Position numbers and translations under genes: made by a program
Notes under the pieces: generated by a model
Databases searched by the model: none
Seen by the model: the letters and a program-made list of their open reading frames with translations, nothing else
Told to the model about the DNA's origin: nothing
In this document: positions 2,999 through 23,140 of the stretch, piece after piece
How positions within the stretch are numbered: position 1 is the stretch's first letter
Layout: every line of letters begins with the position of its first letter
Assembly (NCBI GenBank): GCA_964369475.1
Contig: CAYJFK010000020.1
Coordinates: forward strand, 13,370 to 37,369
DNA from: an uncultured Oscillospiraceae bacterium
Lineage (GTDB): Bacteria; Bacillota; Clostridia; Oscillospirales; Feifaniaceae
DNA: 24,000 nt
Reading direction: 5' to 3'

Positions 2999-3595
2999 AT
3001 GACAAAGGGCGAAAAGAAAAAGATGGAAGTCTATAATTTTATAAGAGACTTTATGGAAGATCAGGGTGTCCCCCCCACAACAAGGGAGATTGGCGACGGT
3101 GTTGGCTTAAAGTCGACCTCGACTGTTTTTATGTATATAAAAAAGCTCGAGGCAGATGGGCTGCTCGGCGGCAGTAGCGGCAGAAAAAGGGGCGCAATGC
3201 CGACAGAAAAAAGAGAGCCCTCGGCATATATCCCCATGCTCGGAACGGTAACGGCAGGCCAGCCAATTTTAGCTATCGAAAGCCACGAGGAGACAGTGCC
3301 TGTCGACCCATCATTTGTTAGAGGCAGAGAACTCTTTGCCCTAAAAATAAAGGGCGACAGCATGATAAATGCAGGCATTTTAGATAAAGACACAGTCTTT
3401 GTAGAACGCACCCCCGACGCAAGAAACGGCGAAATAGTAGTAGCCCTAATAGAAGACGAAGCAACGGTAAAGCGCTTTTACAAAAAAGAAAACGCCTTCT
3501 GGCTAATGCCCGAAAACGATGCCTATCAACCGATCATTGTGGAAGAAGTTGTTATTTTAGGCAAAGTGGTGGGGCTTTTTAGGGATTTTATATAG
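2999..3595 (+). CDS. lexA: LexA repressor (SOS regulator, S24 peptidase)
   Basis: Start placed at ATG 2999 (MTKGEKKK...) with GGAGG 8 nt upstream; the track ORF begins at 2975. N-terminal winged HTH (PPTTREIGDGVGLKSTSTVFMYIKKLE), Ala-Gly cleavage site (VTAGQP), catalytic Ser (KGDSM) and Lys (VKRF). Confidence 0.93.
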   Translation: MTKGEKKKMEVYNFIRDFMEDQGVPPTTREIGDGVGLKSTSTVFMYIKKLEADGLLGGSSGRKRGAMPTEKREPSAYIPMLGTVTAGQPILAIESHEETVPVDPSFVRGRELFALKIKGDSMINAGILDKDTVFVERTPDARNGEIVVALIEDEATVKRFYKKENAFWLMPENDAYQPIIVEEVVILGKVVGLFRDFI

Positions 3596-3613
3596 CAAAA
3601 TCGGAGATTTTGC

Positions 3614-3783
3614 AGGTAAGAAGTAATAGTGAATAAGTAACAACTATGGTGGAAAAACCAAAGGTTTTTCAATAATATATTCAATACTTAATTGCCAACG
3701 GCAATTAAGTTACCATACTTATTACCTATTCACTATTACTTATTACTTAACTTATTCACTTCTTCACTATTACTTATTACTTA
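3614..3783. repeat. Foldback unit 1L: arm - module B - module A - arm' (arm' doubled)
   Basis: Arm AGGTAAG AAGTAAT AGTGAAT AAGTAAC AACTATG G (3614-3649). B is GAAAAACC-AAA-GGTTTTTC (3652-3670). A is CTTAATTGCC-AAC-GGCAATTAAG (3687-3709). The inverted arm spans 3710-3783 with about 10 heptads. Confidence 0.85.
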
Positions 3784-3803
3784 AAAAAAGAGGAGCGTTT
3801 TTT

Positions 3804-4160
3804 ATGAAGGACAGTGAACTTACCCGTCAGTCGGTAGAGCTTTCTGTTTGTATTGTGGAATATTATAAGTGGCTTGTTTATGAGAAAAAAGAATTTGTTA
3901 TGTCTAAGCAGCTACTTAAAAGTGGAACAAGTGTTGGTGCGAATATTCACGAGGCTTTTTATGGAGTTAGTAAGGCAGACTTTATTTCCAAAATGCAGAT
4001 AGCTCTAAAAGAGTGTGCAGAAAGTGAGTATTGGCTCATAATCTTAAAACGCACAAACTATTTTGATATTAAATTTAACCAATTGGAAAACTATATAAAA
4101 TCCCTCAAAAAAATGCTAATATCCACATTAAATACTTCAAAAAAAAGCTTCAATGAGTAA
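3804..4160 (+). CDS. Four-helix-bundle protein (23S rRNA intervening-sequence protein family, PF05635/TIGR02436-like; Avd-like fold)
   Basis: 118-aa ORF with GAGGAG RBS at 3790-3795. The core LLKSGTSVGANIHEAFYGVSKADFISKMQIALKECAESEYWLIIL matches the family signature (QLxRSxxSIxANIAEG...DFxxxxxIAxGSxxEtxYWL). Confidence 0.85.
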   Translation: MKDSELTRQSVELSVCIVEYYKWLVYEKKEFVMSKQLLKSGTSVGANIHEAFYGVSKADFISKMQIALKECAESEYWLIILKRTNYFDIKFNQLENYIKSLKKMLISTLNTSKKSFNE

Positions 4161-4178
4161 TAACTCATTGAAGCTTTT
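4143..4178 (+). terminator. Hairpin spanning the stop codon of the four-helix-bundle gene
   Basis: 15-bp perfect stem AAAAGCTTCAATGAG (4143-4157) / CTCATTGAAGCTTTT (4164-4178) with loop TAATAA containing the stop. A-run and T-run sit inside the stem ends. Confidence 0.5.
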
Positions 4179-4314
4179 TAAGTAAAAAGTAATAGTGAAT
4201 AGGTAATAAGTATGGTAACTTAATTGCCTGTGGCAATTAAGTATTTTATATTATATAGAAAAACCTTTGGTTTTTCCTCCATACTTCTTACTTCTTCACT
4301 ATTACTTATTACCT
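4179..4314. repeat. Foldback unit 1R: arm - module A - module B - arm'
   Basis: Arm AAGTAAA AAGTAAT AGTGAAT AGGTAAT AAGTATG G. A is ACTTAATTGCC-TGT-GGCAATTAAGT (4218-4242). B is GAAAAACC-TTT-GGTTTTTC (4258-4276). The inverted arm spans 4277-4314. Confidence 0.85.
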
Positions 4315-4334
4315 GCAAAATCTTCGATTTTGCC

Positions 4335-6389
4335 TTATACCTCCGTTATAACCGGCAGTATCATTGGGCTTCTCTTTGTTTTATGATAAATATAGCCCGA
4401 AAGTGCATTCTTTATAGCGCTCTTTAGTGCGCCGAATTCGATTGGCATCATGGGGAGGGTTTTGTCTAAGGCGGTGCGTAGTGCGTCGTGTGCGCCGTCC
4501 ATTAGATCCTCTGATTCCTTAACAAATACAAAGCCTCTCGAAACGAGCTCGGGTTGGGAGACAAGCTCGCCTGTGGCACGGTCTACTGTCAAGGCTACAA
4601 CTACAAGGCCGTCCTCGGCGAGGTGCTTTCTGTCACGAAGGACAACACTGCCAACGTCGCCGACACCTATTCCGTCTATAAGCACCTTGCCCGAAGGCAC
4701 TGTACCGTTTAGCTTGCAGCTGTTTGCCGTCATTTCTATAACTCGGCCTATCTCGGAAACAAAAATTCTGCTCTCGTCTATGCCCATTAATTTTGCTGTT
4801 GCAGCGTGGGCAACGAGGTGAGAGTATTCGCCGTGTATCGGAATAAAATATTTCGGCTTTGTAAGTGCCAAAACGAGCTTTTGTTCCTCTTGCGAGGCAT
4901 GGCCCGAAACGTGAACCTCTGCTTGTTTTGTCGTTATTACCTCTGCGCCCCTTTTAAGAAGTCCGTTTATAACCTTGGAGACAGTCTTTTCATTGCCGGG
5001 GATTGGAGAGGCCGAAATAATAACAAGGTCGTCTGGCCCAACTTCAACATTCCTGTGCTCACTCGCCGCCATTCTTGAAAGAGCCGACATGGGCTCGCCC
5101 TGACTGCCGGTAGTAACGAGCACAACACGGTGTGGCTCGTAGTCCTTAATGCGGTCTATGTCTATCAAAATGCCTTCTTCCACATCGATAACACCGAGAG
5201 CAATTGCGGCATTAACATTGTTGATCATAGAGCGACCCGAAACAGCGACCTTTCGTCCTTGCTTGGAGGCGGCATCTATTATCTGCTTAACCCTGTGAAT
5301 GTTAGAGGCAAATGTCGTAACTATAATACGTTTTTTTGTCGTCTCGAAAAGGCGGTCGATGGCACGGGCAACAACATGCTCGCTCTTTGTGTGTCCTGCC
5401 CTCTCGGAATTTGTCGAGTCGGAAAGAAGTGCCAAAACACCCTTTTTACCAAGCTCGCCAAGGCGTGCAAGATCTATCATCTCGCCGTCTATCGGGGTCG
5501 TGTCAATCTTAAAGTCGCCTGTAAATATAATGCGGCCGGCAGGTGTTTCTATGCCGAGCATACATGCATCGGGAATGGAGTGGTTGGCACGAATTATCTC
5601 GACCTTAAAAGAGCCTAAGGTAAGCACATCGCCGTATTCTACTTGATATAGCTCGGTAGTGGCGGTAAGCTTGTGCTCGTCGAGCTTGTTTTTAACAAGT
5701 CCGCATGTAAGCCTTGTGCCGTAGACAGGCGCATTAACCTGCTTTAAAAGGTAGGGTATGCCGCCCGTGTGGTCTTCGTGACCGTGGGTAATAACGATAC
5801 CACGGAGCTTGCTTGCGTTGTTTACCACATAGGTAAAATCGGGTATAACAAGATCGACTCCGGGCATAGAATCGTCGGGGAAGGCTATGCCGCAGTCGAG
5901 CACAAGCATGTCGTCGCCGCACTCGATTACAGTAAGGTTTTTGCCGACCTCGTGCAGTCCGCCAAGCGGGATAATGCGTAGCTTGGAGGAGTTGTCTGTC
6001 TTTAGTGCGGGCGAGCGCTTTAGAATATTTTGCGGCACTCTCGGTGCGGCAGGTTGTGGGGCTTTTCTTGTAGTCATTATCTTGGCACCGCCACGGCGCT
6101 TGTTATTTCTTCCCTTGTTTTGACCGCCCTGACCATTAGATCCTTGTCCACCCTGACCGCTCGTCTTGGTCTGATTTGTATTTGCAGGGGCTGTGCCCTC
6201 TGCTTGCTTGTTTTGCGCCTCGGGCTTTTTCTTAGGCTGAGAGCCGCCCTGTTTGCCGCCTCTCTTGCCTCTGCCTCCCTCGGGCTTTTGAGCGCTCTCT
6301 CCTCTTTTGTCGAAAATAGAGGGCATAACCTCTCCCACATTTTGGGTAGAAGGCCGAGCCTTGCGCTTGGGTTTGTTGTCTTTGTTCAT
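4335..6389 (-). CDS. rnj: Ribonuclease J (metallo-beta-lactamase/beta-CASP) with a ~130-aa basic low-complexity N-terminal extension
   Basis: 684-aa ORF. Contains LRIIPLGGLHEVGKNLTVIE, the HxHxDH motif (ITHGHEDHTGG) and the beta-CASP and C-terminal domains. An alternative internal start at M105 (ATG 6075-6077) would give a canonical ~580-aa protein. Confidence 0.9.
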   Translation of the reverse strand: MNKDNKPKRKARPSTQNVGEVMPSIFDKRGESAQKPEGGRGKRGGKQGGSQPKKKPEAQNKQAEGTAPANTNQTKTSGQGGQGSNGQGGQNKGRNNKRRGGAKIMTTRKAPQPAAPRVPQNILKRSPALKTDNSSKLRIIPLGGLHEVGKNLTVIECGDDMLVLDCGIAFPDDSMPGVDLVIPDFTYVVNNASKLRGIVITHGHEDHTGGIPYLLKQVNAPVYGTRLTCGLVKNKLDEHKLTATTELYQVEYGDVLTLGSFKVEIIRANHSIPDACMLGIETPAGRIIFTGDFKIDTTPIDGEMIDLARLGELGKKGVLALLSDSTNSERAGHTKSEHVVARAIDRLFETTKKRIIVTTFASNIHRVKQIIDAASKQGRKVAVSGRSMINNVNAAIALGVIDVEEGILIDIDRIKDYEPHRVVLVTTGSQGEPMSALSRMAASEHRNVEVGPDDLVIISASPIPGNEKTVSKVINGLLKRGAEVITTKQAEVHVSGHASQEEQKLVLALTKPKYFIPIHGEYSHLVAHAATAKLMGIDESRIFVSEIGRVIEMTANSCKLNGTVPSGKVLIDGIGVGDVGSVVLRDRKHLAEDGLVVVALTVDRATGELVSQPELVSRGFVFVKESEDLMDGAHDALRTALDKTLPMMPIEFGALKSAIKNALSGYIYHKTKRSPMILPVITEV

Positions 6390-6538
6390 TCATGTGTCCT
6401 TTCGAATAATGTTGTTTGTCATATTAAAGCCGCTTTTGTCAGCCGGCATTTTTTTCACAGCTGATAGGCGGAAATATTCTTGTTTAGTATTTATGTTATT
6501 ATATGTTATTTTTCTATATATTGTAGTATTTACAATAT

Positions 6539-6567
6539 ATTATACAAACTGTAAAATATATTGTAAA
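6539..6567 (-). promoter_or_regulatory. Candidate rnj promoter
   Basis: Minus-sense TTTACA (6562-6567), 17-nt spacer ending in TG, TATAAT (6539-6544). This predicts a ~140-nt leader. Confidence 0.5.
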
Positions 6568-6604
6568 ATTCCAAGTCTTATAATCGGCATTCACAGGTAA
6601 TATT

Positions 6605-7117
6605 CTACAATAAGTATAATATCTTATATACCTTTGAAACGAGCTCGACCCTGTCTACATATGTCGCCGTCTCGGTATAGGGGATGTCGCCACGGCCTAT
6701 GCCATCGGCTATCCAGCCCTCTACACGGTTTGGGCCTGCGTTGTAAGAGGCAAGGGCGATCCATAGCGAGTTGCCCTCCATAAGCATTGACAGATAGTAA
6801 CTGCCGTAATCAATATTAACGGCGGCACTATATAAATCTTCTTGTGGCAGATCTCGTTTTTGCCTTAACCATTCGTATGTGTCGGGCATTATCTGCATTA
6901 AACCGCAAGCGCCGACAGGGGAGGTTGCATTTTCGTTAAATCTGCTCTCTGCCCAAATAACGGCATAAATAAGCTCCTCGGGAATGCCGTGATCGGTGGC
7001 GGCGGCGCTTACCTCTGCCCTATAATCTCGGGGGAATAGCTCTGTTAGCTGAAAAAGTGCCAAACAAAAGAGCAATGTTAAAGAGAGCAAAGAGACAAAA
7101 ACTCTCCTTGCCGCCAT
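6605..7117 (-). CDS. Lytic transglycosylase (SLT domain) with N-terminal membrane anchor
   Basis: SLT catalytic motif AVIWAESRFNENATSPVGACGLMQIMPDTYEW. Start placed at ATG 7115-7117 (MAARRVFVSLLSLTLLF..., signal/anchor). The track start at 7189 would overlap coaE by 59 nt. Confidence 0.8.
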   Translation of the reverse strand: MAARRVFVSLLSLTLLFCLALFQLTELFPRDYRAEVSAAATDHGIPEELIYAVIWAESRFNENATSPVGACGLMQIMPDTYEWLRQKRDLPQEDLYSAAVNIDYGSYYLSMLMEGNSLWIALASYNAGPNRVEGWIADGIGRGDIPYTETATYVDRVELVSKVYKILYLL

Positions 7118-7130
7118 CTTTTTCTTTTTA

Positions 7131-7706
7131 CTATAAGCCGAGTTTTTTCGCAACGGCGTCCACCTGACGGGCGACACTCTCCATGTCACCGTCGTTAATA
7201 ATTACATGATCGGCATGAGAAGTGAAAAACTCCTCGCCCTTCTGTGCGGCAAGACGTGCCTCTGCCTGCTCCTTTGTTATACCGTCCCTCTCCATAATGC
7301 GAGAGAGAGATAGCTCGTAAGGCGCAATAACAGCAACGACAGGCCAGCCCCTGCCGCCCTCTATAAATTTTATGGCATCAACAATAATCGCTTTAGCGGT
7401 GCTCTTTTCCTCTATTTCACGAGAGAGTATTCCAAGGTGCTTATAAACAATATCCTCGAGCACCTTCATCTTTGCAGGATCGGCAAATACAATAGGGCCC
7501 AAGACCTTGCGGTTAACTGCGCCGTCCTCGCCTATAATGCCCTCGCCGAAATACTCGGCAAGCTCTGCCGCGCACTGGGTATTAGGGCCTTGCACCTTAT
7601 GTACAAGCTTGTCCGAGTCGATGTGCTCTGCTCCGTGCTTTTCAAAAAGGCGAGCGACGGTGCTCTTGCCGACACCGCTCCTACCCGTTATTCCAAATTT
7701 AATCAT
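7131..7706 (-). CDS. coaE: Dephospho-CoA kinase
   Basis: 191 aa with P-loop GITGRSGVGKSTVA followed by ...IDSDKLVH. Typical CoaE length. Confidence 0.88.
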   Translation of the reverse strand: MIKFGITGRSGVGKSTVARLFEKHGAEHIDSDKLVHKVQGPNTQCAAELAEYFGEGIIGEDGAVNRKVLGPIVFADPAKMKVLEDIVYKHLGILSREIEEKSTAKAIIVDAIKFIEGGRGWPVVAVIAPYELSLSRIMERDGITKEQAEARLAAQKGEEFFTSHADHVIINDGDMESVARQVDAVAKKLGL

Positions 7707-7740
7707 ATCTATCGTTGTCCTTTAGCTCGTATAATAACTA

Positions 7741-8200
7741 TACCCCTGCGCACCCCGCTCCACCGCATGGGGCGATCGGGCGCATCACTTAACATCCGGC
7801 GCCCTGTGGCTTCAAAAACGGGTTCGGATTATATCTATCACCCTACGCAAGCACGGGCGGCTCTGCACGCAAAATGCTTCGACTAAAATTACAGCAGGGC
7901 GCATTTTGCGTGCGCCTTTGCGGCTTAGTGCCGTGCTTATGTCTTTGGTGCTCCCAAAAAAGGAAAGAGAGGTTGCCTTATGCTGTGTGCCCCTTGCCGC
8001 AAAGGCTCTCGCTCCCGCAGGAGCGAGCGAGCCGCCCACCGAGCCCCATGCGGTGGAGCGTGGTCTTGTAGGGGGCAGATGCATGGGGGCGTGCGAAGTA
8101 TACGCACTGAGCATGGGCGCTCTCTGCGACTATGGAGCGAAAGAGGCATATTGCAAAGCTCCATGTGCCGCCATAGGAGAGAGCGAGCATAGTAGGTTTT
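7741..8200. ncRNA. GC-rich, helix-dense non-coding region; candidate large structured RNA or GC-rich inserted element of unknown family
   Basis: All six frames are open (six overlapping 65-100-aa ORFs in the track, none protein-like). Perfect helices: 7756-7773/8043-8060 (18 bp), 7865-7877/7901-7913 (13 bp), 7914-7924/7996-8006 (11 bp). Further helices: 8009-8015/8020-8026, and 8118-8125/8178-8185 enclosing 8132-8138/8159-8165. Two helix extensions are U-G only if read on the + strand. Confidence 0.45.
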
Positions 8201-8229
8201 AGAAAAATCTTATGCCTATCTAATCCACA

Positions 8230-9249
8230 CTACACCCTTATAACTCTATGCCCTGCCGCCTTAATAAGCCTGTTATAAAGAGCAAGGCCAAGACCCTCTC
8301 TTTTTGGGACGGGGCAATATATCTCTGTTGCTCCTATATCGTCGGCAGTCCTAAGTGCGGCAAATATATTGTGAGCCGCCTCGCCAAGATCTCTGCCGAG
8401 CGTTATAACATTATATCCTTCAAAACTTGCCGCATCGCTCTCAAGACAGAGCAAAACGGCATTTTTCTTTGCCTTCATAAAATCCGTCACGGCAGAGGGG
8501 TCACCCTCCACCAAATAGAGCTCCCCCTTAGGGGCATAATGACGATACTTCATTCCGGGCGACGAGGGGATGCTCCCCTTTTCAATCTCCCCCAAAACAG
8601 CACGGTCAATATCAATGCTTCCAATAACTTCCTCTATCTCCTCGGCAGTTACACCACCCGGACGCAGTAGCCTCGGGGGAGATACCGCAAGCGAAAGCAC
8701 GGTCGACTCAAGCCCGACATCGCACTGTCCGCCCTCCAAAATAAAGCCAAGATCCTCCCCAAAATCGCCATCTACATGAAGTGCGGTAGTGGGCGACGGT
8801 CTGCCCGATATATTGGCAGAGGGAGCGGCAATAGGAAGCCCTGCTCGCCTAATTAAATCGAGCGCCACAGGATGCGACGGCATACGCACCGCCACAGTAT
8901 CAAGCCCTGCCGACACAATGTGCGGCACAATGTCGCTCTTTTTCAAAACAAGAGTAAGTGCCCCCGGCCAAAACTTTTGAGTTAAGCTGTATGCCTCTTT
9001 CGGAATATCACAGCACAACATTTCAAGCATCTCTACGCTACTAATGTGCAGTATAAGAGGATTGTCCGACGGCCTGCCCTTTGCCTTATAAATAAGACTG
9101 CAAGCCGCCCCATCAAGTCCATTTGCGCCAAGCCCATATACCGTCTCTGTCGGAAAGGCAACAAGTCCCCCCTCCTTAAGTATATCGGCCGCTATTTCTA
9201 TATTTTGCTCGGTAGGGGGAAATATTCGCCCCCCCTCCATATTTATCAT
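8230..9249 (-). CDS. tsaC: L-threonylcarbamoyladenylate synthase (Sua5/YwlC type, with C-terminal Sua5 domain)
   Basis: 339 aa with the YrdC-domain motif [15 protein letters not shown]...[13 protein letters not shown]. The start overlaps the prfA stop (ATGA, 9246-9249). Confidence 0.88.
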
Positions 9250-10407: not shown

Positions 10408-10617
10408 TTAACCAAGTTCTATGTTGCCATCTTCAACCGCTTTACTCTCGACACTCTTAATGCCGCCGACAGCCTTAGACCGTACCATCCAAAGCTCCCT
10501 ACCGCACCCTTCACACTTAAACCGAATGTCCATCCCCGTCCGCATAACAACAAACCGACTACTGCCACAGGGGTGCTTTTTCTTCATAATGCAAATATCC
10601 CCAACATTCAGTATCAT
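10408..10617 (-). CDS. DUF951 family small protein (zinc-ribbon-like)
   Basis: 69 aa. MKKKHPCGS...RTGMDIRFKCEGCGR is the pattern typical of DUF951 (YyzM-like). AAAGGAG RBS upstream. Confidence 0.7.
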   Translation of the reverse strand: MILNVGDICIMKKKHPCGSSRFVVMRTGMDIRFKCEGCGRELWMVRSKAVGGIKSVESKAVEDGNIELG

Positions 10618-10716: not shown

Positions 10717-10980
10717 AAGAACTATATAAGTAAGAACTATACTAAGTAATAGGTAATAGTGAAGAAGTAATAACTATGGAAAAAATTGCTTGCGCAATTT
10801 TAATTATATTCGGAGCTAAACCCCAACGGGGTTTAGCGGATAAGCAAAAAAACGCTATGCGACATTTTGTCGCATAGCGTTTTTTACCCTCAAATTGCCA
10901 AAGGCAATTTGATATTTCTAATATAAAAGCGGTAGCTTTTACACCATAGCTCTTACTTCTTACTTATTACTTATTACTTA
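10717..10980. repeat. Heptad-armed foldback element 2: arm - F - G - C - D - E - arm'
   Basis: Arm AAGTAAT AGGTAAT AGTGAAG AAGTAAT AACTATG G (10744-10779), preceded by partial arm duplications. F spans 10782-10801, G 10815-10837, C 10846-10885, D 10891-10911, E 10925-10940. The inverted arm spans 10944-10980 (5 heptads). Confidence 0.85.
10846..10885. terminator. Bidirectional intrinsic terminator (module C), downstream of the ABC operon
   Basis: A7 - CGCTATGCGACA - TTT - TGTCGCATAGCG - T6. Confidence 0.7.
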
Positions 10981-10989
10981 AAAACCCTC

Positions 10990-11631
10990 TCACCCCACAT
11001 CGACTCCTTCCATGACCTTTCGTGAAAGTTTTCTCGAAAAGTAGTGTGCAAGTAGGCATAACGGTAACGATGATATTGCGCCGAGGGAGATCGTTGTTAG
11101 GTCGGCAGACATTTGAAGACCCATAAGACCGCTGTAACCGGCTATCGGGATAAATACCAACAAAAACATTAATATCCTTGTCTTTTCCACACCGTATTTG
11201 TAAAGAATGGGGATCGATACCGCCTGATAAAGTAGGCTGACCGACATTGTTATAAAGATAAGCATTACCCCAACTATCGCTATGTCATATTCAAGCCCGT
11301 ATAGCATGGAATGAATCAAAACAAGCAGAGTGGAAATGCCGCCGCCGACAAATATAGTCAGTAGGCCAAAGCTGTATCTGCCGTCTACAACTTCTTTTCT
11401 TGTTACATTTAAGGTCATAGCATACTTGTTGCCGCCCGACATTGCGTCGTAGCTAAAGGCGGAATATATCTGCGAGCCCAATATAAAGACAAGCACCGAG
11501 TATAAAAATGACATGTCGGTTATTATGCCGATGGCAAGATATACGACCCCGAGAAGCAAAACGGTGTTGAGCGATTTGCTTGAATTTTGCCAATCCTTGA
11601 GCACAAGCCCATTAACTGCTGATTTTCTCAT
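10990..11631 (-). CDS. ABC-2 family transporter permease
   Basis: 213 aa, about 6 predicted TM helices, GGAGG RBS. Last gene of the GntR-ABC operon. Confidence 0.75.
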   Translation of the reverse strand: MRKSAVNGLVLKDWQNSSKSLNTVLLLGVVYLAIGIITDMSFLYSVLVFILGSQIYSAFSYDAMSGGNKYAMTLNVTRKEVVDGRYSFGLLTIFVGGGISTLLVLIHSMLYGLEYDIAIVGVMLIFITMSVSLLYQAVSIPILYKYGVEKTRILMFLLVFIPIAGYSGLMGLQMSADLTTISLGAISSLPLCLLAHYFSRKLSRKVMEGVDVG

Positions 11632-13530: not shown

Positions 13531-13612
13531 ATTTGAGAGCCTTTGTCAAGTGCTTTTGAGAAAATTTTTTAAACTGGAAAAATCAGTCAAGCTTATCGTG
13601 GGATTAGTTAAG

Positions 13613-13655
13613 CAGTAACTAAGAAGTAATAAGTATGGCATAAAAGCTCTGCTTT
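13613..13655. repeat. Solo/degenerate half copy of the foldback element (arm + E-like hairpin)
   Basis: AGTAACT AAGAAGT AATAAGTATGG arm-like sequence followed by AAAAGC-TCT-GCTTTT. No matching inverted arm. Confidence 0.5.
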
Positions 13656-13733
13656 TAATTTAAAAATGCCGTGGTATCTTAAAAATATTACTGTACACAT
13701 TTCACAAAAAAATCACACAGTTACAAATAACCA

Positions 13734-13817: not shown

Positions 13818-14483
13818 ATGAAAAACATAGCAAAAATCGCAATACTTCTTGCTCTGTGCCTTGTTATGACGGCATGCAGCGGCGGCGGTATAGATGCAGG
13901 CGCTTACATGAACTTAGAGCTGCAATCTACTTACCTAAACAACCACACACAGGAATTTATCGACATGCTTTCGGACGATGTAACGGTAGAAGACCTCGAA
14001 GAAATGTACTATGGCGGCGTAGAGGCTGAGGTAGATTTCTTCCTTGGTTACTATTTGGAAATATACACCGAAATGCTCTCGCAAGAGACAATCGATCGTG
14101 CAAACACACTTTTTGATCAGATCTACACAAACACAAAATACGAAATAGGCGAAGTTCGTGAGAGCGGCTCCAACTACGAAGTAGACATAACAATCTACCC
14201 GATCGACATTATCGAGAAGGTAATAACGGTAGAGTTTGTAACAGAGGCACTCGAGGCAGTCTACTCGCAAGAGGGCGCAGATGAAATGGCAATGGAGGAG
14301 CTCGAGGAGCAGTACACAGACATTATCCTTACAGCCTTAGAAGAAAACTTAGCGGCGATCGGCCACTTAGAGCCTGTAACAATAACAGCCCTAATCATAG
14401 GCGGCGACAGCTACTACGAACTAAACGACACAAGCTGGCAAGAAATCGACACCTACATCATCAGCTACGGCAGTGAGGGTTAA
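13818..14483 (+). CDS. Putative acidic lipoprotein
   Basis: 221 aa with a signal peptide and lipobox (LALCLVMTAC). GGAGAG RBS. The mature part is very acidic. Confidence 0.75.
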   Translation: MKNIAKIAILLALCLVMTACSGGGIDAGAYMNLELQSTYLNNHTQEFIDMLSDDVTVEDLEEMYYGGVEAEVDFFLGYYLEIYTEMLSQETIDRANTLFDQIYTNTKYEIGEVRESGSNYEVDITIYPIDIIEKVITVEFVTEALEAVYSQEGADEMAMEELEEQYTDIILTALEENLAAIGHLEPVTITALIIGGDSYYELNDTSWQEIDTYIISYGSEG

Positions 14484-14484
14484 T

Positions 14485-14811
14485 AAAAATTGCTTTGGCA
14501 ATTTTTAGGTAATAGGTAATAGTGAAGAAGTAAGAGGTAATAGTGAATAAGTAATAAGTATGGTAACTTAATTGCCTTTGGCAATTAAGTATTAAATATT
14601 ATATAGAAAAACCCCAAAGGGTTTTTCTGCCATACCTAGTACTTCTTGCCTAAGTAAAAAAACGCTGTGCGACAATATGTCGCACAGCGTTTTTTTACTC
14701 TCAAATTGCCAAGGGCAATTTGATATGTTTAATATAAAAGCGGTAGCTTTTACACCATAGTTATTACTTCTTCACTATTACCTATTACTTCTTCACTCTT
14801 ACCTCTTACTT
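14485..14811. repeat. Heptad-armed foldback element 3: F - arm(8 heptads) - A - B - degenerate arm' - C - D - E - arm'(8 heptads)
   Basis: F spans 14485-14506. Arm AGGTAAT AGGTAAT AGTGAAG AAGTAAG AGGTAAT AGTGAAT AAGTAAT AAGTATG G (14507-14562). A spans 14565-14589, B 14606-14627, C 14656-14696, D 14702-14722, E 14736-14751. The inverted arm spans 14755-14811. Confidence 0.85.
14656..14696. terminator. Bidirectional intrinsic terminator (module C) between the convergent lipoprotein and comEA genes
   Basis: A7 - CGCTGTGCGACA - ATA - TGTCGCACAGCG - T7. Confidence 0.7.
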
Positions 14812-15252
14812 TAAAAAAACCACAAACTCCAAAAGCCCCTCCAAGACCTTCTCCCCAATGCCGGAGACCGCCAGTAAATCTTCTGCCTCGCTGTATGGCC
14901 TGCCCTCTATAATGCGCTCAGCTATTGTCGGGCCTATGCCGGGGAGGGTGTCGAGTAGGTCGGCAGGGGCGCTGTTTATGTCTATCTTGCCGTCTATTAT
15001 ATACTGCGGTGGCGTAGTGTCGTTTTGCTCCGACTGCACTAAAGTGCCGTCTCCATAGCCGACACGATTGCCGCCCAAAAGGAGCATGGCAAGGCAAGAG
15101 CATAGCAAAATGGCAAAGAGCACAAGATAAAACCCAACAGACCCTCGCCTTACCGCCCTTTTCTCGGGCAGAGGTGAGGCCGTATGGCCTCCCTCGTCTT
15201 TGCTCATGAGCAGCGATATATAATGCTCCGAGTCACGCTTGTTACTATCCAC
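14806..15252 (-). CDS. comEA: ComEA family helix-hairpin-helix DNA-binding protein
   Basis: 148 aa, GTG start with GGGGGTG RBS and one TM helix. C-terminal HhH repeats (INSAPADLLDTLPGIGPTIAERII...LLAVSGIGEKVLEGL). Confidence 0.85.
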   Translation of the reverse strand: MDSNKRDSEHYISLLMSKDEGGHTASPLPEKRAVRRGSVGFYLVLFAILLCSCLAMLLLGGNRVGYGDGTLVQSEQNDTTPPQYIIDGKIDINSAPADLLDTLPGIGPTIAERIIEGRPYSEAEDLLAVSGIGEKVLEGLLEFVVFLK

Positions 15253-17803: not shown

Positions 17804-19765
17804 ATGAGCGACAAGAACACCTTTTACATCTCGACCCCAATCTACTATCCGTCGGACAACCTGCATATAGGACATGCCTATTGCACGGTAGCGGCAGATG
17901 CGATGGCACGCTTTAAGCGTCTTGAGGGGTTTGACGTTATGTTCCTAACAGGAACGGACGAGCACGGCCAAAAGATCGAGGGCAAGGCGACAGAGGCCGG
18001 CAAGACACCAAAGCAGTATGTCGACGACATTGTAGACGGCATACACAAGCTATGGGATCTAATGGGCATATCGCACGATAAATTTATAAGAACGACAGAC
18101 GACTACCACAAGGAAGCCGTTCAAAAGATATTTAAAATGCTCTACGACAAGGGCGACATATACAAGAGCGAATACGAGGGTCTATACTGCACACCTTGCG
18201 AATCCTTTTGGACAGAGCATCAGCTTGTAGACGGCAAATGCCCCGACTGCGGCAGAGATGTTGAGAAGACAAAGGAAGAGAGCTACTTCTTTAAGCTCTC
18301 CAAGTACCAAAAACAACTCGAGGACTACTACGAGGCACACCCCGACTTTATCTCCCCACAGTCGAGACTAAACGAGATGCTCTCGAACTTCATTCGCCCG
18401 GGACTCGAAGATCTCTGCGTTTCCCGTACCTCCTTTAAATGGGGTATCCCTGTAAGTTTCGACGATAAGCATGTCGTATATGTTTGGGTCGATGCCCTCT
18501 CCAACTACATCACAGCGCTCGGCTGGGGAAGTGACGACGACAGCCTATTTAAGAAATACTGGCCTGCCGATGTTCACCTTGTAGGCAAGGAGATCGTGCG
18601 CTTCCACACAATTATATGGCCTGCAATGCTAATGGCGCTCGACATGGAGCTACCCAAAATGGTATACGGTCACGGCTGGCTACTGCTCCAAGGCGGCAAG
18701 ATGAGCAAGTCCAAGGGCAATGTTGTAGACCCTGCCGTTTTGTGCGAGAGATACGGCAGAGATGCAATACGCTACTTCCTACTTCGTGAAGTGCCATTCG
18801 GTTCAGACGGTGTTTTCTCAAACGAAGCACTTATAAACCGCATAAACTCCGACCTTGCCAACGACCTTGGCAACCTCGTAAGCCGTACCCTGACAATGGC
18901 TGGCAAATTCTTTGGCGGCACTATTACCCCCTCGGGCGTTACAGACGAGTTTGACGCTTCTCTAAAGGCACAGCTCGACGAGAGCGTTAAGGCATACCAC
19001 GGCGAGATGAACAAAATGATGTTCTCGACAGCATATGCCGAGGTATTCAAGCTCGTTTCACGCTCGAACAAATATATCGACGAGACAATGCCGTGGAAAC
19101 TCTCGAAAAACGAGGAGACAATGCCACGCCTGCAAGAGGTTATATACAACCTTTGCGAGACCATCCGTGTTATAGCTATACTCTGCCAAGCGGCAATGCC
19201 TACAACGAGCGAGAAGATTTTAAACTTCTTCGGTGTGTCTGAGGCCGCTCGTGCTTGGGACAGTGTCTACGAGTTTGGCAAGACTGCCGAGTTTAAGACA
19301 GAAAAGGGCGAAATTTTGTTCCCCAGAATCGATCTTGCCGAGGAGATGAAGAAGCTCGAAAAGGAAGAGTCAAAGCGCAAGTCGGCAGCCGAGAAGGCCG
19401 CTAAAAAGGCTGCAAAGGAAGCCGAGAAAAACGCTCCAAAGCCAATAATCGAGTACGACGACTTTGCCAAGATGGACTTTAGAGTGGCCAAAATCGAAAA
19501 CTGCGAGATCGTCGAAAACTCCGACAAGATGCTAAAACTATACCTCGATGTGGGCGGCGAAAAGCGCACCATTGCCTCGTCAATTCGTGAGTGGTACACA
19601 CCCGAGCAGCTAATAGGCCGCAACATTATTATCGTTGCAAACCTAAAGCCAGCCGTTATAAGGGGTGTAGAGTCGCAAGGAATGCTCCTTGCGTGTGATA
19701 ACACCGAGACCGACTGCAAGGTTATATTTGCCGACGAGTGCACACCGGGCAAGCCTGTTAGATAG
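17804..19765 (+). CDS. metG: Methionine--tRNA ligase with C-terminal tRNA-binding (Trbp111-like) domain
   Basis: 653 aa with HIGH motif (NLHIGHAY), KMSKS (GKMSKSKGN) and a zinc knuckle (CTPCE...CPDCG). C-terminal FRVAKIENCEIVENSDKMLKLYLDVG. Confidence 0.95.
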   Translation: MSDKNTFYISTPIYYPSDNLHIGHAYCTVAADAMARFKRLEGFDVMFLTGTDEHGQKIEGKATEAGKTPKQYVDDIVDGIHKLWDLMGISHDKFIRTTDDYHKEAVQKIFKMLYDKGDIYKSEYEGLYCTPCESFWTEHQLVDGKCPDCGRDVEKTKEESYFFKLSKYQKQLEDYYEAHPDFISPQSRLNEMLSNFIRPGLEDLCVSRTSFKWGIPVSFDDKHVVYVWVDALSNYITALGWGSDDDSLFKKYWPADVHLVGKEIVRFHTIIWPAMLMALDMELPKMVYGHGWLLLQGGKMSKSKGNVVDPAVLCERYGRDAIRYFLLREVPFGSDGVFSNEALINRINSDLANDLGNLVSRTLTMAGKFFGGTITPSGVTDEFDASLKAQLDESVKAYHGEMNKMMFSTAYAEVFKLVSRSNKYIDETMPWKLSKNEETMPRLQEVIYNLCETIRVIAILCQAAMPTTSEKILNFFGVSEAARAWDSVYEFGKTAEFKTEKGEILFPRIDLAEEMKKLEKEESKRKSAAEKAAKKAAKEAEKNAPKPIIEYDDFAKMDFRVAKIENCEIVENSDKMLKLYLDVGGEKRTIASSIREWYTPEQLIGRNIIIVANLKPAVIRGVESQGMLLACDNTETDCKVIFADECTPGKPVR

Positions 19766-19793
19766 CTTTGCATTACGCAATTTTTATAAACCT

Positions 19794-19840
19794 TACCCCC
19801 TTTGGGCGATATGCCTTGAGGGGGTATTTTTCTTTTTTTA
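19794..19840 (+). terminator. metG intrinsic terminator
   Basis: Stem TACCCCCT (19794-19801) / AGGGGGTA (19819-19826) followed by TTTTTCTTTTTTT. Confidence 0.75.
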
Positions 19841-20011
19841 CAAAAAGAGCTAAAAATCTCAAAGAGATAAATGCAAATGAATTTAAATTGTTTACACCCA
19901 GTTAAAATCCCCCTGTTTACAAGAGTGGTATTTGTGTGGTATCATTACATGTATTTATGTTACAGTTTGCAAAATAGATACAGGGCAAAACTATAAATGG
20001 AAGGTGTTTTT

Positions 20012-20413
20012 ATGCAAGATATGCAGGTTTTTTACTTCACAAAAACAGGGCGCAGTCAGATGGTGGCAAAGAGCATTGCCGATAAATTCGGAGTGCTCTC
20101 TAATCAGATAATAGACAAAGAAAATTGGGACGGTGTTGTGGGCTTTTTAAAGGGCGGCGCTAAGGCCTCCAAGGAGGAGCGCACCGAGATAAAACATGCC
20201 GCCATAGAAGAAGGCAAGGAGATAGTGCTTGTTTTCCCCGTCTGGGCAGGAAAATTTCCCCCTGCTGTAAATGCCTTTATGGAGGGTGTCGACCGCTCTA
20301 TTGTAACGCTCGTCGCAACCTCGCTCGGCACAAAGATTAAGGACAGAGAGGGCTATAAAAAGGTTATAGACCTTGTAGGCAAAGACATTTCCGGAATGGA
20401 AATAGATATATAG
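20012..20413 (+). CDS. Flavodoxin-like fold protein
   Basis: Start set at ATG 20012 (MQDMQVFYFTKTGRSQMVAKSIA...), which has a better RBS than the track start at 19997. The N-terminal FYFTKTGRS loop resembles the flavodoxin phosphate-binding loop. Confidence 0.55.
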   Translation: MQDMQVFYFTKTGRSQMVAKSIADKFGVLSNQIIDKENWDGVVGFLKGGAKASKEERTEIKHAAIEEGKEIVLVFPVWAGKFPPAVNAFMEGVDRSIVTLVATSLGTKIKDREGYKKVIDLVGKDISGMEIDI

Positions 20414-20534
20414 ATTGCATAAGCGAGAGGTTAAATAGCGATAGATTGAAGGTCTCTCGAAATGGCATGTGTTTTTGCTCATCGGGGCAGATCGTTAAAA
20501 GTAAAACTTTATGTACTATAATAGGAGGGCAACA

Positions 20535-21551
20535 ATGGAGGGCGAAAAGACAGGACTTTTAGAGGCGAGCTCGGAGCTGCCGCTCGAGCTTGAGGAAAAA
20601 GAATCAAACAATGCCGAGCTGTCGGCAGATTTGGCAGAGAAAGAGTCGGCAGAGAAAGAGCTTACTACATCCGATAAATCTAACTTTATCAAGGGGGCAA
20701 TTTGCATACTTCTTGCCGCCCTTGGATTTTCATTAAATCAGGCAATATCAAACTACCTCGGCTCGACTGTCGGTGTTTTTGAAAAACTGGTATTTCTAAA
20801 TTTAGTGCCGATGGCAATATTCGGCTTTTTGATTTGGAAAGAGCATATACCAATGCTGGGCGGTAAGCCGTCGCTAATGATTTCGAGATGCCTATTCGGG
20901 CTTTTTTCCTCCGTCTTAACAATAACGGCAAGCACATTTAGTAGCAGACCGCTATTCGAGCTAACAGTGCTCTCCTCGACCTCGGCGATATTTTCCATGA
21001 TCTCAGCGGCACTCTGGCTAAAGGAAAAGGTAACAAAAGCGCAGATAATTATAATAATTGTATGCTTTGTCGGTGTCGTAGTAACGGTGCGACCCTCGCC
21101 ACAGCTATTTACCGATCCCTTTTGGCTCTTTGCCCTCGGCGGTGCGGCATTTGCAGGGGTCGCCTATACAATTGTCAGAAGCCTAAAAAACTATGCACAC
21201 CCCTATGCAGTGGTATTTTGCTTTGGAGCTGTCTCCTTTTTGGGCTCGGTGCCGATGTATATATACGAGCTCTACCAAGGCGCAGGAATGCCGACATTTT
21301 CGCAGTTTATATACATGATGCTAATGGGAGTAACAATAGCCTTCGGACAGTACTTCCTAAACCTCGGCTACCGCCTTGCAGATGCCTCTAAGGTATCACC
21401 ATTCCTATATGTGCAAAATGTATATTCGCTTATAATCTCGCTCTTTATATTCGGTCAGACAGTAACGATATTCTCCTATATAGGGGCGGCGCTGATAATT
21501 GGCGGAAATTATGCAAATTTAATCGTATCAAGAAAAAAAGCGGCACAGTAG
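20535..21551 (+). CDS. EamA/DMT family transporter with acidic N-terminal extension
   Basis: Start set at ATG 20535, 7 nt after GGAGGG (track start 20511). About 10 TM helices in two EamA-like halves. Confidence 0.8.
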   Translation: MEGEKTGLLEASSELPLELEEKESNNAELSADLAEKESAEKELTTSDKSNFIKGAICILLAALGFSLNQAISNYLGSTVGVFEKLVFLNLVPMAIFGFLIWKEHIPMLGGKPSLMISRCLFGLFSSVLTITASTFSSRPLFELTVLSSTSAIFSMISAALWLKEKVTKAQIIIIIVCFVGVVVTVRPSPQLFTDPFWLFALGGAAFAGVAYTIVRSLKNYAHPYAVVFCFGAVSFLGSVPMYIYELYQGAGMPTFSQFIYMMLMGVTIAFGQYFLNLGYRLADASKVSPFLYVQNVYSLIISLFIFGQTVTIFSYIGAALIIGGNYANLIVSRKKAAQ

Positions 21552-21605
21552 TCAGACTGGAGAAAAACCTAAAGTCAAGCCCCTTCGGAAGGAGGGGGAG
21601 CGGCG

Positions 21606-21721
21606 AGGGGGCACCATCAGGGTGCCCCCTGGCGTTAAATTCCCGCCCCGTGGGCGTTAAAATCAGCTTTAGCTGATTTCTCAGCTTGGAGAAAACGCTT
21701 CTCCAAGCTGCAGTAGTTTTT
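21606..21721 (+). repeat. Train of four short hairpins downstream of the DMT gene (arm-less relative of the mosaic modules?); the last one is terminator-like
   Basis: AGGGGGCACC-ATCAG-GGTGCCCCCT (21606-21630). CGCCC-CGT-GGGCG (21645-21657). AAATCAGC-TTTA-GCTGATTT (21660-21679). CAGCTTGGAGAA-AACGC-TTCTCCAAGCTG (21682-21710) followed by ...TTTTT. Direct repeat GGCGTTAAA occurs twice. Confidence 0.55.
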
Positions 21722-21818
21722 GCTTGCAGAGACCTCATATTTTTTTGCAAAGAGCGTGTTTTTGCGTTTTTAGGTTATATATAACAATTAAATTATGAGA
21801 AAATATGCAAAAATGCTA

Positions 21819-21847
21819 TTGATGTATAGCAAATGTTATGCTATAAT
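21819..21847 (+). promoter_or_regulatory. Promoter of the small membrane protein gene
   Basis: TTGATG (21819-21824), 17-nt spacer, TATAAT (21842-21847). Confidence 0.55.
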
Positions 21848-21880
21848 TAAATATACTAAATATATAAAGGAGGGTGCAAG

Positions 21881-22156
21881 GTGTTTTTATTCAAGATTTT
21901 CGACTGGTCGCTCGAGAGGCTACGCAACTTCTCAATCTTTGATTTTGGTCTTTTTAAGTTTGCAATGTTTTTTATAGGGGTATTGTTCGCAATATTCACG
22001 GCGGATTTTTGGAAGGGCAAAACAAAGCTCGCCGCAGCCCTTGCAGGCGGCTTCTCACTCGCTCTGCTACTTCGCCTACTATTCGGCACCACCTATTATG
22101 AGATAGATGCAGACCCGGAGATGTACTTCGATGGCGAAATAGACATGGAAATGTAA
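21881..22156 (+). CDS. Hypothetical small membrane protein
   Basis: 91 aa, GTG start 6 nt after AAGGAGGG. Two hydrophobic segments and an acidic C-terminus. Confidence 0.6.
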   Translation: MFLFKIFDWSLERLRNFSIFDFGLFKFAMFFIGVLFAIFTADFWKGKTKLAAALAGGFSLALLLRLLFGTTYYEIDADPEMYFDGEIDMEM

Positions 22157-22157
22157 C

Positions 22158-22185
22158 TAAAAAAGAGGGGCAACCCTCTTTTTTG
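22158..22185. terminator. Intrinsic terminator
   Basis: A6 - AGAGGG - GCAA - CCCTCT - T5. Confidence 0.75.
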
Positions 22186-22215
22186 TTTGCATAAACCGTT
22201 ACCACACTATATATC

Positions 22216-22244
22216 TTGCGTTTTTATCCGAAATGGGGTATAAT
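22216..22244 (+). promoter_or_regulatory. Promoter firing directly into foldback element 4
   Basis: TTGCGT (22216-22221), 17-nt spacer, TATAAT (22239-22244). The left arm of the element starts at about 22249-22253. Confidence 0.55.
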
Positions 22245-22248
22245 GATT

Positions 22249-22389
22249 AAAGAAGTAATAAGTAATAGTTAAGAAGTAATAAGAATGGTAACTTAATTGA
22301 CGTTGGCAATTAAGTATTGAATATAATATTAGAAAAACCCAAAGGTTTTTCCACCATAGTTATTACTTATTCACTCTTACTTATTACCT
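22249..22389. repeat. Heptad-armed foldback element 4: arm - A - B - arm' (minimal form)
   Basis: Arm AAGTAAT AAGTAAT AGTTAAG AAGTAAT AAGAATG G (22253-22288). A is CTTAATTGAC-GTT-GGCAATTAAG (one mismatch). B is GAAAAACC-CAAA-GGTTTTTC (22332-22351). The inverted arm spans 22354-22389. Confidence 0.85.
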
Positions 22390-22408
22390 AAAAAAGGGGG
22401 TTCTTATT

Positions 22409-22639
22409 TTGACAGCAAAAAAATGGGGGTCGCTTGTGGCGCCTTTGGTCGTGACGGTACTGCTTTGCATGTATTTTGCATTTTGGGGATTTGCACTGAT
22501 CTTTACACCTTCTAACATATTGTTTAAGGTGCTGGCCTGTGGAATTCCCGCATGTTTAATTGTTGTAAGTTTGTACAACCTAATACACAGATATAACGAA
22601 TTAAAAGGAGGAATAGAAGATGATCTTGACAACTACTGA
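22409..22639 (+). CDS. Hypothetical two-TM small membrane protein
   Basis: 76 aa, TTG start 8 nt after GGGGG. Two hydrophobic helices. Overlaps the ybjQ start by 20 nt. Confidence 0.55.
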   Translation: MTAKKWGSLVAPLVVTVLLCMYFAFWGFALIFTPSNILFKVLACGIPACLIVVSLYNLIHRYNELKGGIEDDLDNY

Positions 22640-22931
22640 AAACATCCCCGGAAAAACATACGAGATAATCGGACTTGCAAGGGGGTCTACCGTGCAGTCT
22701 AAAAACTTCGGCAAGGACATTATGTCGGGACTTAAAGGCCTTGTCGGCGGCGAAATATCGGCATATACCGAAATGATGAACGAGGCAAGGGCAATAGCGA
22801 CAAAGCGCATGGTAGAGGATGCCCAAATGCAAGGCGCAAATGCCATAGTAATGATGCGCTACTCCTCCTCCGCTGTAATGCAATCAGCAGCTGAGGTAAT
22901 AGCATATGGTACGGCGGTTAGGATACTTTAG
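22620..22931 (+). CDS. ybjQ: YbjQ family protein (UPF0145, heavy-metal-binding domain)
   Basis: 103 aa. MILTTTENIPGKTYEIIGLARGSTVQSKNFGKDIMSGLKGLVGGEISAYTEMMNEAR... is the canonical YbjQ pattern. AGGAGG RBS. Confidence 0.88.
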   Translation: MILTTTENIPGKTYEIIGLARGSTVQSKNFGKDIMSGLKGLVGGEISAYTEMMNEARAIATKRMVEDAQMQGANAIVMMRYSSSAVMQSAAEVIAYGTAVRIL

Positions 22932-23140
22932 TTTTAAGTAAGAGTGAAGAGTGAAGAGTGAAGAGTTATGGTGAAAAATTGCTGAGGCAATTTTTGGTTT
23001 TATATAATAATAAAGGGCGGGCACCTTTGGTGCCCGCCCTTTAGCTTAGAGAAAAACCTTTAGGTTTTTTATTGTATCAAATACTTAATTGCCAAAGGCA
23101 ATTAAGTTACCATAACTCTTCACTCTTCACTCTTCACTAA
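22932..23140. repeat. Heptad-armed foldback element 5: arm - F - G - B - A - arm'
   Basis: Arm AAGTAAG AGTGAAG x3 AGTTATG G (22936-22971). F spans 22974-22995. G is AAAGGGCGGGCACC-TTT-GGTGCCCGCCCTTT (23012-23042). B spans 23051-23070, A 23083-23107. The inverted arm 23110-23138 is a perfect 29/29 complement of 22943-22971. Confidence 0.88.

Follow-up and report, generated by a model that had tools for sequence, protein, structure and literature searches.

Heptamer-armed repeats behind gene ends in an Oscillospiraceae genome are miniatures of a cassette built around a four-helix-bundle gene

Why should the convergent gene junctions in a stretch of bacterial DNA be occupied by copies of one inverted repeat? 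The question is raised by 24,000 nucleotides (nt) of DNA from an uncultured Oscillospiraceae bacterium (Feifaniaceae; GenBank assembly GCA_964369475.1, contig CAYJFK010000020.1, positions 13,370 to 37,369), hereafter the window, in which an earlier note, made from the letters alone, had claimed exactly three convergent junctions, each with a copy of a repeat family. Genes named by their Pfam and NCBIfam domains, and a codon log-odds gene caller that reproduces these annotations, confirm this. Here we show that the window elements are miniatures lacking an open reading frame (ORF), together with one ORF-bearing composite, of a widespread selfish cassette. In its full form this cassette is a gene for a four-helix-bundle (S23p or Avd-like) protein bracketed by inverted arrays of tandem heptamers. 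The most familiar of its members is the S23p-type intervening sequence of 23S rRNA. Its elements gather immediately after the 3′ ends of transcription units, be these stop codons, tRNA CCA ends or terminator hairpins.

A repeat search of the window returned one family, with six copies in 24 kb (E1 to E6, Table 1) and one half copy. The outer arms of each copy are inverted and made of tandem heptamers (AGTAATA, GTGAAGA, GTGAATA and similar units). The arm motif (RKKAAKA)x3, with at most one mismatch, gave 30 matches that merge into 13 arms, where shuffled sequences lead one to expect 0.00. In the window the purine-rich arm (R) always precedes its complement, the pyrimidine-rich arm (Y). The arms are bounded by ACT...AGT, and an inner boundary of the form ACTAT(n)G ends the R arm in cassettes and miniatures alike. 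Between the arms lies a variable mosaic of small tri- and tetraloop hairpins (named A to H), some of them terminator-like, whose orientation varies between copies (A-B or B-A); hairpin A (TTAATTGCCnnnGGCAATTAAGT) has 5 sites in the window against 0 expected. E2, E4 and E5, which lie in unrelated contexts, share 81-86% identity over 101 nt (4177-4277, 14525-14625 and 22250-22350), and E3 and E4 share 90% over 100 nt (10880-10979 and 14691-14790), with modules D, E and F of E3 likewise 90% identical to their counterparts in E4. Every element folds, on both strands, into a single long duplex of the arms with small hairpins as its cap (z scores of -8 to -20). Rfam gave no match at gathering score and no rRNA in the window, with only chance-level matches at E ≤ 1, and on eight related loci it found tRNA, 5S rRNA and T-box only. 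Two other readings of the repeats were rejected: a CRISPR array, since the units are contiguous 7-mers in inverted pairs without spacers, and a promoter within hairpin A and its AT-rich spacer, for which there are just 9/12 consensus matches.

The nature of the family emerges from the junction between lexA and rnj. The earlier note had taken 3595-4333 for a single full element; the junction is indeed occupied, but by two miniatures, E1 and E2, inverted with respect to each other and flanking an intact protein-coding gene. Their inverted repeat extends over 162 nt (3589-3750 against 4178-4339) and is 90% complementary. The gene, preceded by a ribosome-binding site (RBS; GAGGAG, 8 nt before the start), encodes a protein that matches 23S_rRNA_IVP in Pfam (PF05635, 4.7e-24), TIGR02436 in NCBIfam (9.9e-27) and 2RLD in the PDB (1e-29). 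PF05635 proteins are encoded in intervening sequences of some 23S rRNA genes and are homologous to Avd of diversity-generating retroelements. The presence of such a gene in the composite hence shows the family to be related to the S23p-type intervening sequence (IVS) of 23S rRNA. The five other window copies have no ORF, and are thus derivatives of an S23p-type cassette, not full members. PADLOC gave no defence-system match for the four-helix-bundle protein, and 7,585 homologues at E ≤ 1e-10 were found among 8,000 candidates scored. Many close homologues lie on contigs of 0.5-1.5 kb, which fits assemblies breaking at flanking repeats.

The association of gene and arms holds in other organisms. 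At 12 of the 12 loci picked solely by the four-helix-bundle gene, in four phyla, heptamer arrays adjoin it, most of these loci having purine-rich units upstream of the gene and complementary ones downstream. In the Clostridia loci arrays lie beside the ORF in 6/6 cases and on both sides in 5/6. At the two-sided loci the upstream array is purine-rich and the downstream array complementary to it, and the ORF is often followed by an additional R:Y hairpin; in the exception, L154, the Y arm lies beyond a second ORF. Plasmid records picked by the gene have arrays in 6/6 cases (Euhalothece, Anabaena, Nostoc, Treponema, Bernardetia and Monoglobus, that is, Cyanobacteriota, Spirochaetota, Bacteroidota and Bacillota). 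The heptamer changes with lineage (CTGGTCA, AGTAAAA, AAGTCGG, GTGGAAA, TTAGTGA, AATTAGG), whereas the 7-nt period is kept, as is the AGT core in most. Furthermore, a generic lag-7 detector found 17 arrays in 6 kb near four-helix-bundle genes against 5 in 33 kb elsewhere.

We also picked loci by the arms. A scan with the arm pattern gave at least 119 loci in 185,579 species genomes (GTDB) and at least 120 in JGI metagenomes. Among the 119 genome loci listed, 10 have a four-helix-bundle homologue, which lies beside the arrays in 7/10; the 120 listed from metagenomes hold 13 homologues, 12/13 beside arrays. The listed genome loci are overwhelmingly metagenome-assembled genomes (MAGs) of gut and rumen Clostridia (Acutalibacteraceae, Oscillospiraceae, Ruminococcus, Christensenellaceae). 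The arm pattern also matched 31 viral contigs. A heptamer-armed element of the (+,-) layout with two GC hairpins was seen in the IMG/VR contigs L003, L005, L014, L016 and L029 and in one MAG (L139); its presence in viral contigs indicates that the family also rides on phage or prophage DNA. A 29-mer of the window sub-family, taken from hairpin A, had no exact match in the JGI metagenomes. The host is isolated: look-ups of its RNase J and its four-helix-bundle protein gave no exact match, and the best RNase J relatives are 64% identical.

The full cassette is laid out much like the S23p-type IVS of Leptospira and Coxiella burnetii (Ralph & McClelland 1993; PMC4990558). In the Coxiella 23S IVS an S23p ORF is accompanied by tandem heptamers (GACAGAT), whose number varies between strains, and by a terminal stem of 28 bp that RNase III cuts, and IVSs of this type have been regarded as selfish and possibly mobile (PMC4990558). 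The composite resembles them in its PF05635/TIGR02436 ORF, in the terminal inverted repeats that enclose it (those of the IVS pair into a duplex of ~28 bp) and in the adjoining tandem heptamers. It differs in unit sequence (AGTAATA/GTGAAGA here, GACAGAT in Coxiella). The IVS lies in helix 45 or 25 of the 23S rRNA and carries its ORF, whereas the window copies lie between protein-coding genes, with no rRNA found by Rfam, and most of them have a mosaic of small hairpins instead of an ORF. Cutting by RNase III is a feature of the Coxiella IVS that window elements may share. Variation between strains also has its parallel: L155 differs from L158, L160 and L161, all of one species, by three heptamers (21 nt) between prfA and the cassette gene, upstream of the latter. 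Together with the 12/12 loci picked by the gene, the layout of the Coxiella IVS leads us to class the window elements as ORF-less miniatures of the cassette family.

Cassettes were also found splitting conserved gene pairs: cas2/cas1 in Anabaena pANACY.01 (L173), hsdS/hsdR in Monoglobus (L172), prfA/sua5 in L155 and miaB/mutS in L168. In the window, and in its nearest relatives L151 and L153, prfA and sua5 overlap. The four-helix-bundle family has been called "CRISPR-associated" because it is found between cas genes, and cassettes between gene pairs such as cas2/cas1 probably explain the listing of 23S_rRNA_IVP under that name. Tandem heptamers in intergenic DNA are familiar from cyanobacteria, where Mazel et al. 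reportedly described, in 1990, the STRR units CCCCAGT, TTGGTCA and CAACAGT, which differ from those of the window in phylum and sequence. In Euhalothece (L169) a run of (CTGGTCA)x13 follows the four-helix-bundle gene (1028-1131). At L174, AAGTCGG is paired with ACTTCCG (536-574 and 1068-1109), and the Nostoc and Anabaena (L173) genes are flanked by arrays of AAGTCGG and AGTAAAA. These three cyanobacterial loci suggest that at least some STRR repeats belong to four-helix-bundle cassettes. Repeats at 3′ ends and the S23p IVS are already known. Our literature searches for earlier accounts of these Clostridia repeats, or of four-helix-bundle genes with heptamer arms around them, turned up only the Coxiella IVS paper; nor did we find it described that such genes carry inverted heptamer arms as a general rule, that ORF-less miniature derivatives lie at gene ends, that there is a link to STRR-type heptamers or that STRR form inverted arms around such genes.

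Where do the elements lie? Within the window they occupy 3/3 convergent, 3/17 tandem and 0/3 divergent gaps. A hypergeometric calculation by hand (3/3 convergent among 6 occupied of 23 gaps) gives p = 0.011, a post hoc value from a small sample. As the earlier note had it, further copies follow the ABC operon (10717-10985) and precede a gene in a 5′ leader (22249-22395), and the divergent regions are bare save for the half copy (13609-13656). Its description of arms flush with the stop codons has to be amended: copies do touch or overlap stops, but at lexA/rnj the heptamer arms proper begin ~20 nt away, and it is the outer hairpins that are flush. One of these (GCAAAATCggaGATTTTGC) begins at 3595, the G of the lexA TAG, and the last base of its twin, 4333, leaves a single nucleotide before the rnj stop (4335-4337). 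Hairpin C of E4 begins at 14485-14486, directly after a TAA (14481-14483), and the comEA stop (14806-14808) lies within the right arm of the same element (14762-14810). The ybjQ TAG (22929-22931) stands 5 nt before the arm of E6, at the other end of which the aminotransferase stop (23137-23139) overlaps the last base.

A junction-type census, as the earlier note had proposed, was run on the arm motif in other organisms, with tRNAs among the features and the 239 listed loci forming two independent samples. Our results show that placement is not random, convergent gaps being occupied more often than tandem ones and these more often than divergent ones. The occupied gaps among the listed loci are 21/85 convergent, 73/501 tandem and 7/91 divergent in the GTDB genomes, and 20/55, 54/413 and 6/58 in the JGI metagenomes, which combined gives 29%, 14% and 9%. 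Convergent gaps differ from divergent ones with an odds ratio of 4.3 (p = 8e-6) and from tandem ones with an odds ratio of 2.6 (p = 2e-5). Gap length does not explain the bias, since the unoccupied divergent gaps are the longest. When tRNA features are left out, only a weak trend is seen (convergent 22%, tandem 14%, divergent 15%; p = 0.1). Within tandem gaps arrays lie nearer the upstream 3′ end, in 56/73 cases in the genomes (p = 5e-6; medians 42 against 148 nt) and in 37/54 in the metagenomes (p = 0.009; medians 30 against 66 nt). An array stands within 120 nt of a tRNA 3′ end at 25/119 and 15/120 listed loci (~17%), mostly at 27-45 nt, and the intervening gap is filled by a hairpin that starts with the encoded CCA; by a rough estimate, this is an enrichment of ~50-70-fold. 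The two samples hence support the earlier description of a 3′-end element analogous to REP/BIME repeats but structurally distinct, which either inserts preferentially at transcript ends or is retained there.

The layout most common elsewhere is a Y arm, a loop of ~25 nt and an R arm (L138:5480-5700, L112, L144, L059, L062 and ~40 others). This (-,+) layout adjoins a hairpin of the form CCAAAA-stem-loop-stem-TTTTGG, and its loop copies one half of that hairpin; in L104 the loop CCAAAGCCCCAAGGAC is the reverse complement of the hairpin 3′ half. Such a copy allows alternative pairings, and it may be an antiterminator-like switch or, just as well, a duplication that insertion left behind. The longest common substring between a loop and a half of the neighbouring terminator exceeds cross-locus controls by a modest margin only, since repeated sub-families exist among the terminator hairpins themselves.

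How might the elements have come to occupy transcript ends? We think it probable, with real room for doubt, that a selfish four-helix-bundle cassette and its ORF-less miniatures are tolerated there, that their arms are cut by RNase III and that they spread by arm homology. Insertion would do least damage at the very 3′ end of a transcription unit, where no promoter would be disrupted. The R strand, which an incoming ribosome would read, has stops in all three frames in 154/200 arms, whereas the Y strand has none in 174/200; with TAA, TAG or TGA in every frame, insertion at the last codons would cost only a few residues. Stop codons do lie within arms, at comEA in the window and at prfA in L155. 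The interior A-tract/stem/T-tract hairpins could replace a terminator in both directions. In RNA of either strand the arms, mostly 4-5 units long, would close into a duplex of 28-49 bp, which by analogy with the IVS may be a substrate of RNase III; cleavage would then give both convergent transcripts defined ends and limit antisense read-through. For copy spread no transposase would be required: the arms may supply homology that travels with the element and serves recombination and inversion, the exchange of modules and copying from site to site, with unit number changing by slippage.

Several observations weigh against this account. The arms that flank the window gene are Y upstream and R downstream, and the usual order of R, gene and Y holds only for the outer arms. 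The closest relatives, with RNase J 64% identical and a shared prfA-sua5-coaE-SLT-rnj operon, carry no arrays in 44 kb, the generic lag-7 detector finding 0 there. Arms are as complementary between elements as within them (100% over 36 nt for E3 and E4), so that there is no evidence from compensatory change for a selected RNA stem. E5 stands after a promoter-like site and ahead of a small ORF's RBS, and would hence lie in a 5′ leader, and in L099 an element lies between a T-box terminator and the RBS; copies in such leaders cannot be obligatory strong terminators. No transposase or integrase was found among the domains of the window ORFs. Target-site duplications are not unambiguous, since the TA...TA on the flanks belongs to the inverted repeat as well. 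Finally, the census relied on a home-made gene caller, a single arm motif and loci from species other than the host.

These leader copies also speak against the alternative that the host itself selects the elements, as bidirectional terminator or insulator cassettes that stop collision and stabilise upstream mRNA, mobility being incidental. Modules D, H and T4 have the A-tract/stem/T-tract form of an intrinsic terminator in both directions, at least one such strong hairpin stands in each convergent junction, and no other terminator-like hairpin is evident in the convergent gaps of the window. Convergent gaps are, moreover, the most occupied class in both samples, and both strands fold equally well. 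However, two copies stand after a promoter or attenuator and ahead of an RBS, where the gene would be silenced by a terminator, and the nearest relatives do without any copy in 44 kb despite the shared operon. On both strands of (+,-) elements the run behind the arm duplex is one of A and not of U; (-,+) units elsewhere have a T-run behind the R arm on the strand in tRNA sense. With its mosaic content and its link to a four-helix-bundle gene, the family has a selfish rather than a designed look, and we consider host selection unlikely.

A selfish origin could also take a more conventional form, in which the elements are MITEs (miniature transposable elements with inverted repeats), their arms being terminal inverted repeats for a transposase encoded elsewhere (for example a TA-targeting IS630/mariner enzyme) and the four-helix-bundle gene a passenger. 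Correia of Neisseria, RUP, BOX and SPRITE of pneumococcus and ERIC are, like the window family, small, non-coding, bounded by inverted repeats, dispersed and able to form long hairpins, and are also alike in being co-transcribed with neighbouring genes; Correia RNA is a substrate of RNase III. Inverted terminal arms, copies 80-90% identical in unrelated contexts, TA on both sides of four of five elements and the many homologues on very short contigs, as expected of multi-copy repeats, would all fit. TA, however, is self-complementary and hence not distinguishable from an extension of the inverted repeat, and the window family has no clear target-site duplication. The arms vary by lineage in sequence and number of 7-nt units while the heptamer design is kept, unlike fixed transposase-binding repeats. 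No transposase was found in the window or among the genes called next to gene-picked cassettes, where the four-helix-bundle gene is the only recurrent ORF. Nor did a transposase-encoding parent appear among the loci searched, which were not whole genomes; the ORF-bearing relatives examined encode four-helix-bundle proteins. We therefore regard a transposase-driven origin as improbable. REP/BIME repeats of Enterobacteria are intergenic, high-copy modular mosaics that gather at gene 3′ ends and between convergent genes, and their RNA hairpins can affect termination and mRNA stability. The window family is like them in its concentration at 3′ ends and convergent junctions, but lacks the 35-40-nt REP palindrome with its GTAG head, has tandem heptamers as arms and has an ORF-bearing form that encodes a four-helix-bundle protein. 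No RAYT (Y1 transposase) domain was found among the window ORFs.

The heptamer itself raises another candidate. The DRT10 (UG17) reverse transcriptase makes complementary DNA (cDNA) of tandem AGTAATA units from a non-coding RNA template with two ACU motifs 7 nt apart (2026 preprint, bioRxiv 10.64898/2026.04.29.721553). By analogy, an Avd-like pentamer might bind ~4-5 heptamers, in tracts laid down or extended by a reverse transcriptase that iterates a short RNA template. AGTAATA ranks among the main units both here and elsewhere, with 175 of those tallied, as AGTAATA/TATTACT in window arms such as 22254-22281 and 10951-10978, and the ACT...AGT boundaries recall the ACU/AGT register motifs of DRT10. 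The AGT core is kept in units flanking four-helix-bundle genes of other phyla, Avd, which PF05635 proteins resemble, is an accessory protein of a reverse transcriptase, 2RLD has 5 chains where arm length peaks at 4-5 units, and unit number is polymorphic. Nevertheless, DRT10 yields extrachromosomal cDNA with a reverse transcriptase, a non-coding RNA and a SLATT effector, and was characterised from Escherichia (Pseudomonadota), not Clostridia, whereas the arms here are chromosomal and of mixed units. No reverse transcriptase or SLATT domain was found among the window ORFs, nor such a gene next to gene-picked cassettes, and the resemblance is one of repeat unit only. One match among ~2,300 heptamer classes could be chance in AT-rich DNA, and replication slippage with point mutation explains the heterogeneity of units within arms. 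We hence find this mechanism very doubtful, and the match in unit a low-probability lead of interest. A broader conjecture, itself a long shot, would unite the 23S rRNA IVS, the cyanobacterial STRR and the Clostridial miniatures in a single phylum-spanning class of mobile elements, in which the heptamer tracts would be the operative part, bound by a toroidal pentameric Avd-like protein and laid down or extended, as by DRT10, through iterative reverse transcription of a 7-nt template in the manner of telomerase. If true, it would give the four-helix-bundle family a function and hint at a new route of DNA mobility or repeat genesis. As for random intergenic placement, with the 3/3 convergent junctions an accident of small numbers, the window has just 23 gaps and its test was chosen after seeing the data, but the same order of gap classes in two independent samples (combined p ~1e-5), the nearness of arrays to upstream 3′ ends in tandem gaps and the enrichment behind tRNAs make it scarcely credible.

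To our knowledge, the four-helix-bundle (S23p) family has no known role outside diversity-generating retroelements. The inverted arrays, the insertion into conserved operons and the miniatures at gene ends recast these genes as a selfish cassette and explain their odd genomic associations. As a model, the arms could be both RNase III sites and binding sites of the four-helix-bundle protein. For annotation, it matters that where housekeeping genes end the repeats provide stop codons and terminators as well as long double-stranded RNA, and they probably also break assemblies of gut Clostridia.

Table 1. Features of the window, with fold z scores for the two strands of each element (R, purine-rich arm; Y, pyrimidine-rich arm).
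Feature	Position	Strand	Fold z	Description
Convergent junction 1	2975-3595 / 4335-6389	+ / -		LexA against RNase J
Convergent junction 2	13818-14483 / 14806-15252	+ / -		unknown ORF against ComEA-like
Convergent junction 3	22620-22931 / from 23137	+ / -		YbjQ against class I/II aminotransferase
Composite	3595-4333		-19 / -23	E1, four-helix-bundle gene and E2
E1 miniature	3595-3783	none	-10.9 (+) / -9.1 (-)	outer hairpin hp0 3595-3613; R arm 3615-3650; hairpin B 3653-3669; hairpin A 3688-3708; Y arm 3712-3747; extra Y arm 3750-3783
Four-helix-bundle gene	3804-4160	+		intact, 118 aa; S23p / 23S_rRNA_IVP / TIGR02436 family
T4 hairpin	4141-4179	none		A-tract/stem/T-tract; overlaps four-helix-bundle stop codon; bidirectional-terminator form
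E2 miniature	4175-4333	none	-10.7 / -13.7	inverted twin of E1; R arm 4181-4216; hairpin A 4220-4240; hairpin B 4259-4275; Y arm 4279-4314; hp0' 4315-4333
E3	10717-10985	none	-14.6 / -13.6	follows last ABC-2 permease gene (stop 10990-10992); R arm ~10726-10779; hairpins C 10782-10801, G 10815-10837, D 10847-10885 (A6-stem-T6, terminator-like), E 10891-10911, F 10925-10940; Y arm 10943-10980
Half copy	13609-13656	+		divergent promoter region; solo R arm ending AGTATGG, then F-type hairpin
E4	14485-14817	none	-19.5 / -18.0	convergent junction, unknown ORF against comEA; hairpin C 14486-14505; 7-unit R arm 14508-14556; hairpins A, B, D (14657-14695), E, F; 7-unit Y arm 14762-14810 with comEA stop codon inside
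Promoter-like site	22216-22244	+		TTGCGT-17-TATAAT, directly upstream of E5; consensus match only
E5	22249-22395	none	-7.7 / -7.9	R arm 22254-22281; hairpins A, B; Y arm 22361-22388
Small ORF	22409-22639	+		76 aa, predicted membrane protein, unannotated; leader holds E5
E6	22932-23140	none	-19.4 / -20.0	convergent junction, ybjQ against aminotransferase; R arm 22937-22964 (GTGAAGA units); hairpin C 22975-22994; GC-rich hairpin H 23012-23042; hairpins B and A; Y arm 23117-23137

Gene calling by longest ORF was tried and rejected, as it miscalled coaE, ybjQ and a permease; the codon log-odds caller was used instead. A DUF951 gene of 69 aa (10408-10617, - strand) lies upstream of prfA in the window as in relatives, which places E3 between the stop codon of the ABC operon and the region upstream of DUF951. 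The N-terminus of RNase J (6015-6389, - strand) has an extension of ~125 aa, rich in Lys, Gly, Gln and Asn, that most homologues (554 aa) do not have and that accounts for the strong AT skew at 6001-6500. The small ORF downstream of E5 overlaps the start of ybjQ by 20 nt, and ORFs of 76-82 aa are called at the same ybjQ-overlapping position in the nearest relatives, L151 and L153; the two genes appear to form a conserved two-gene unit.

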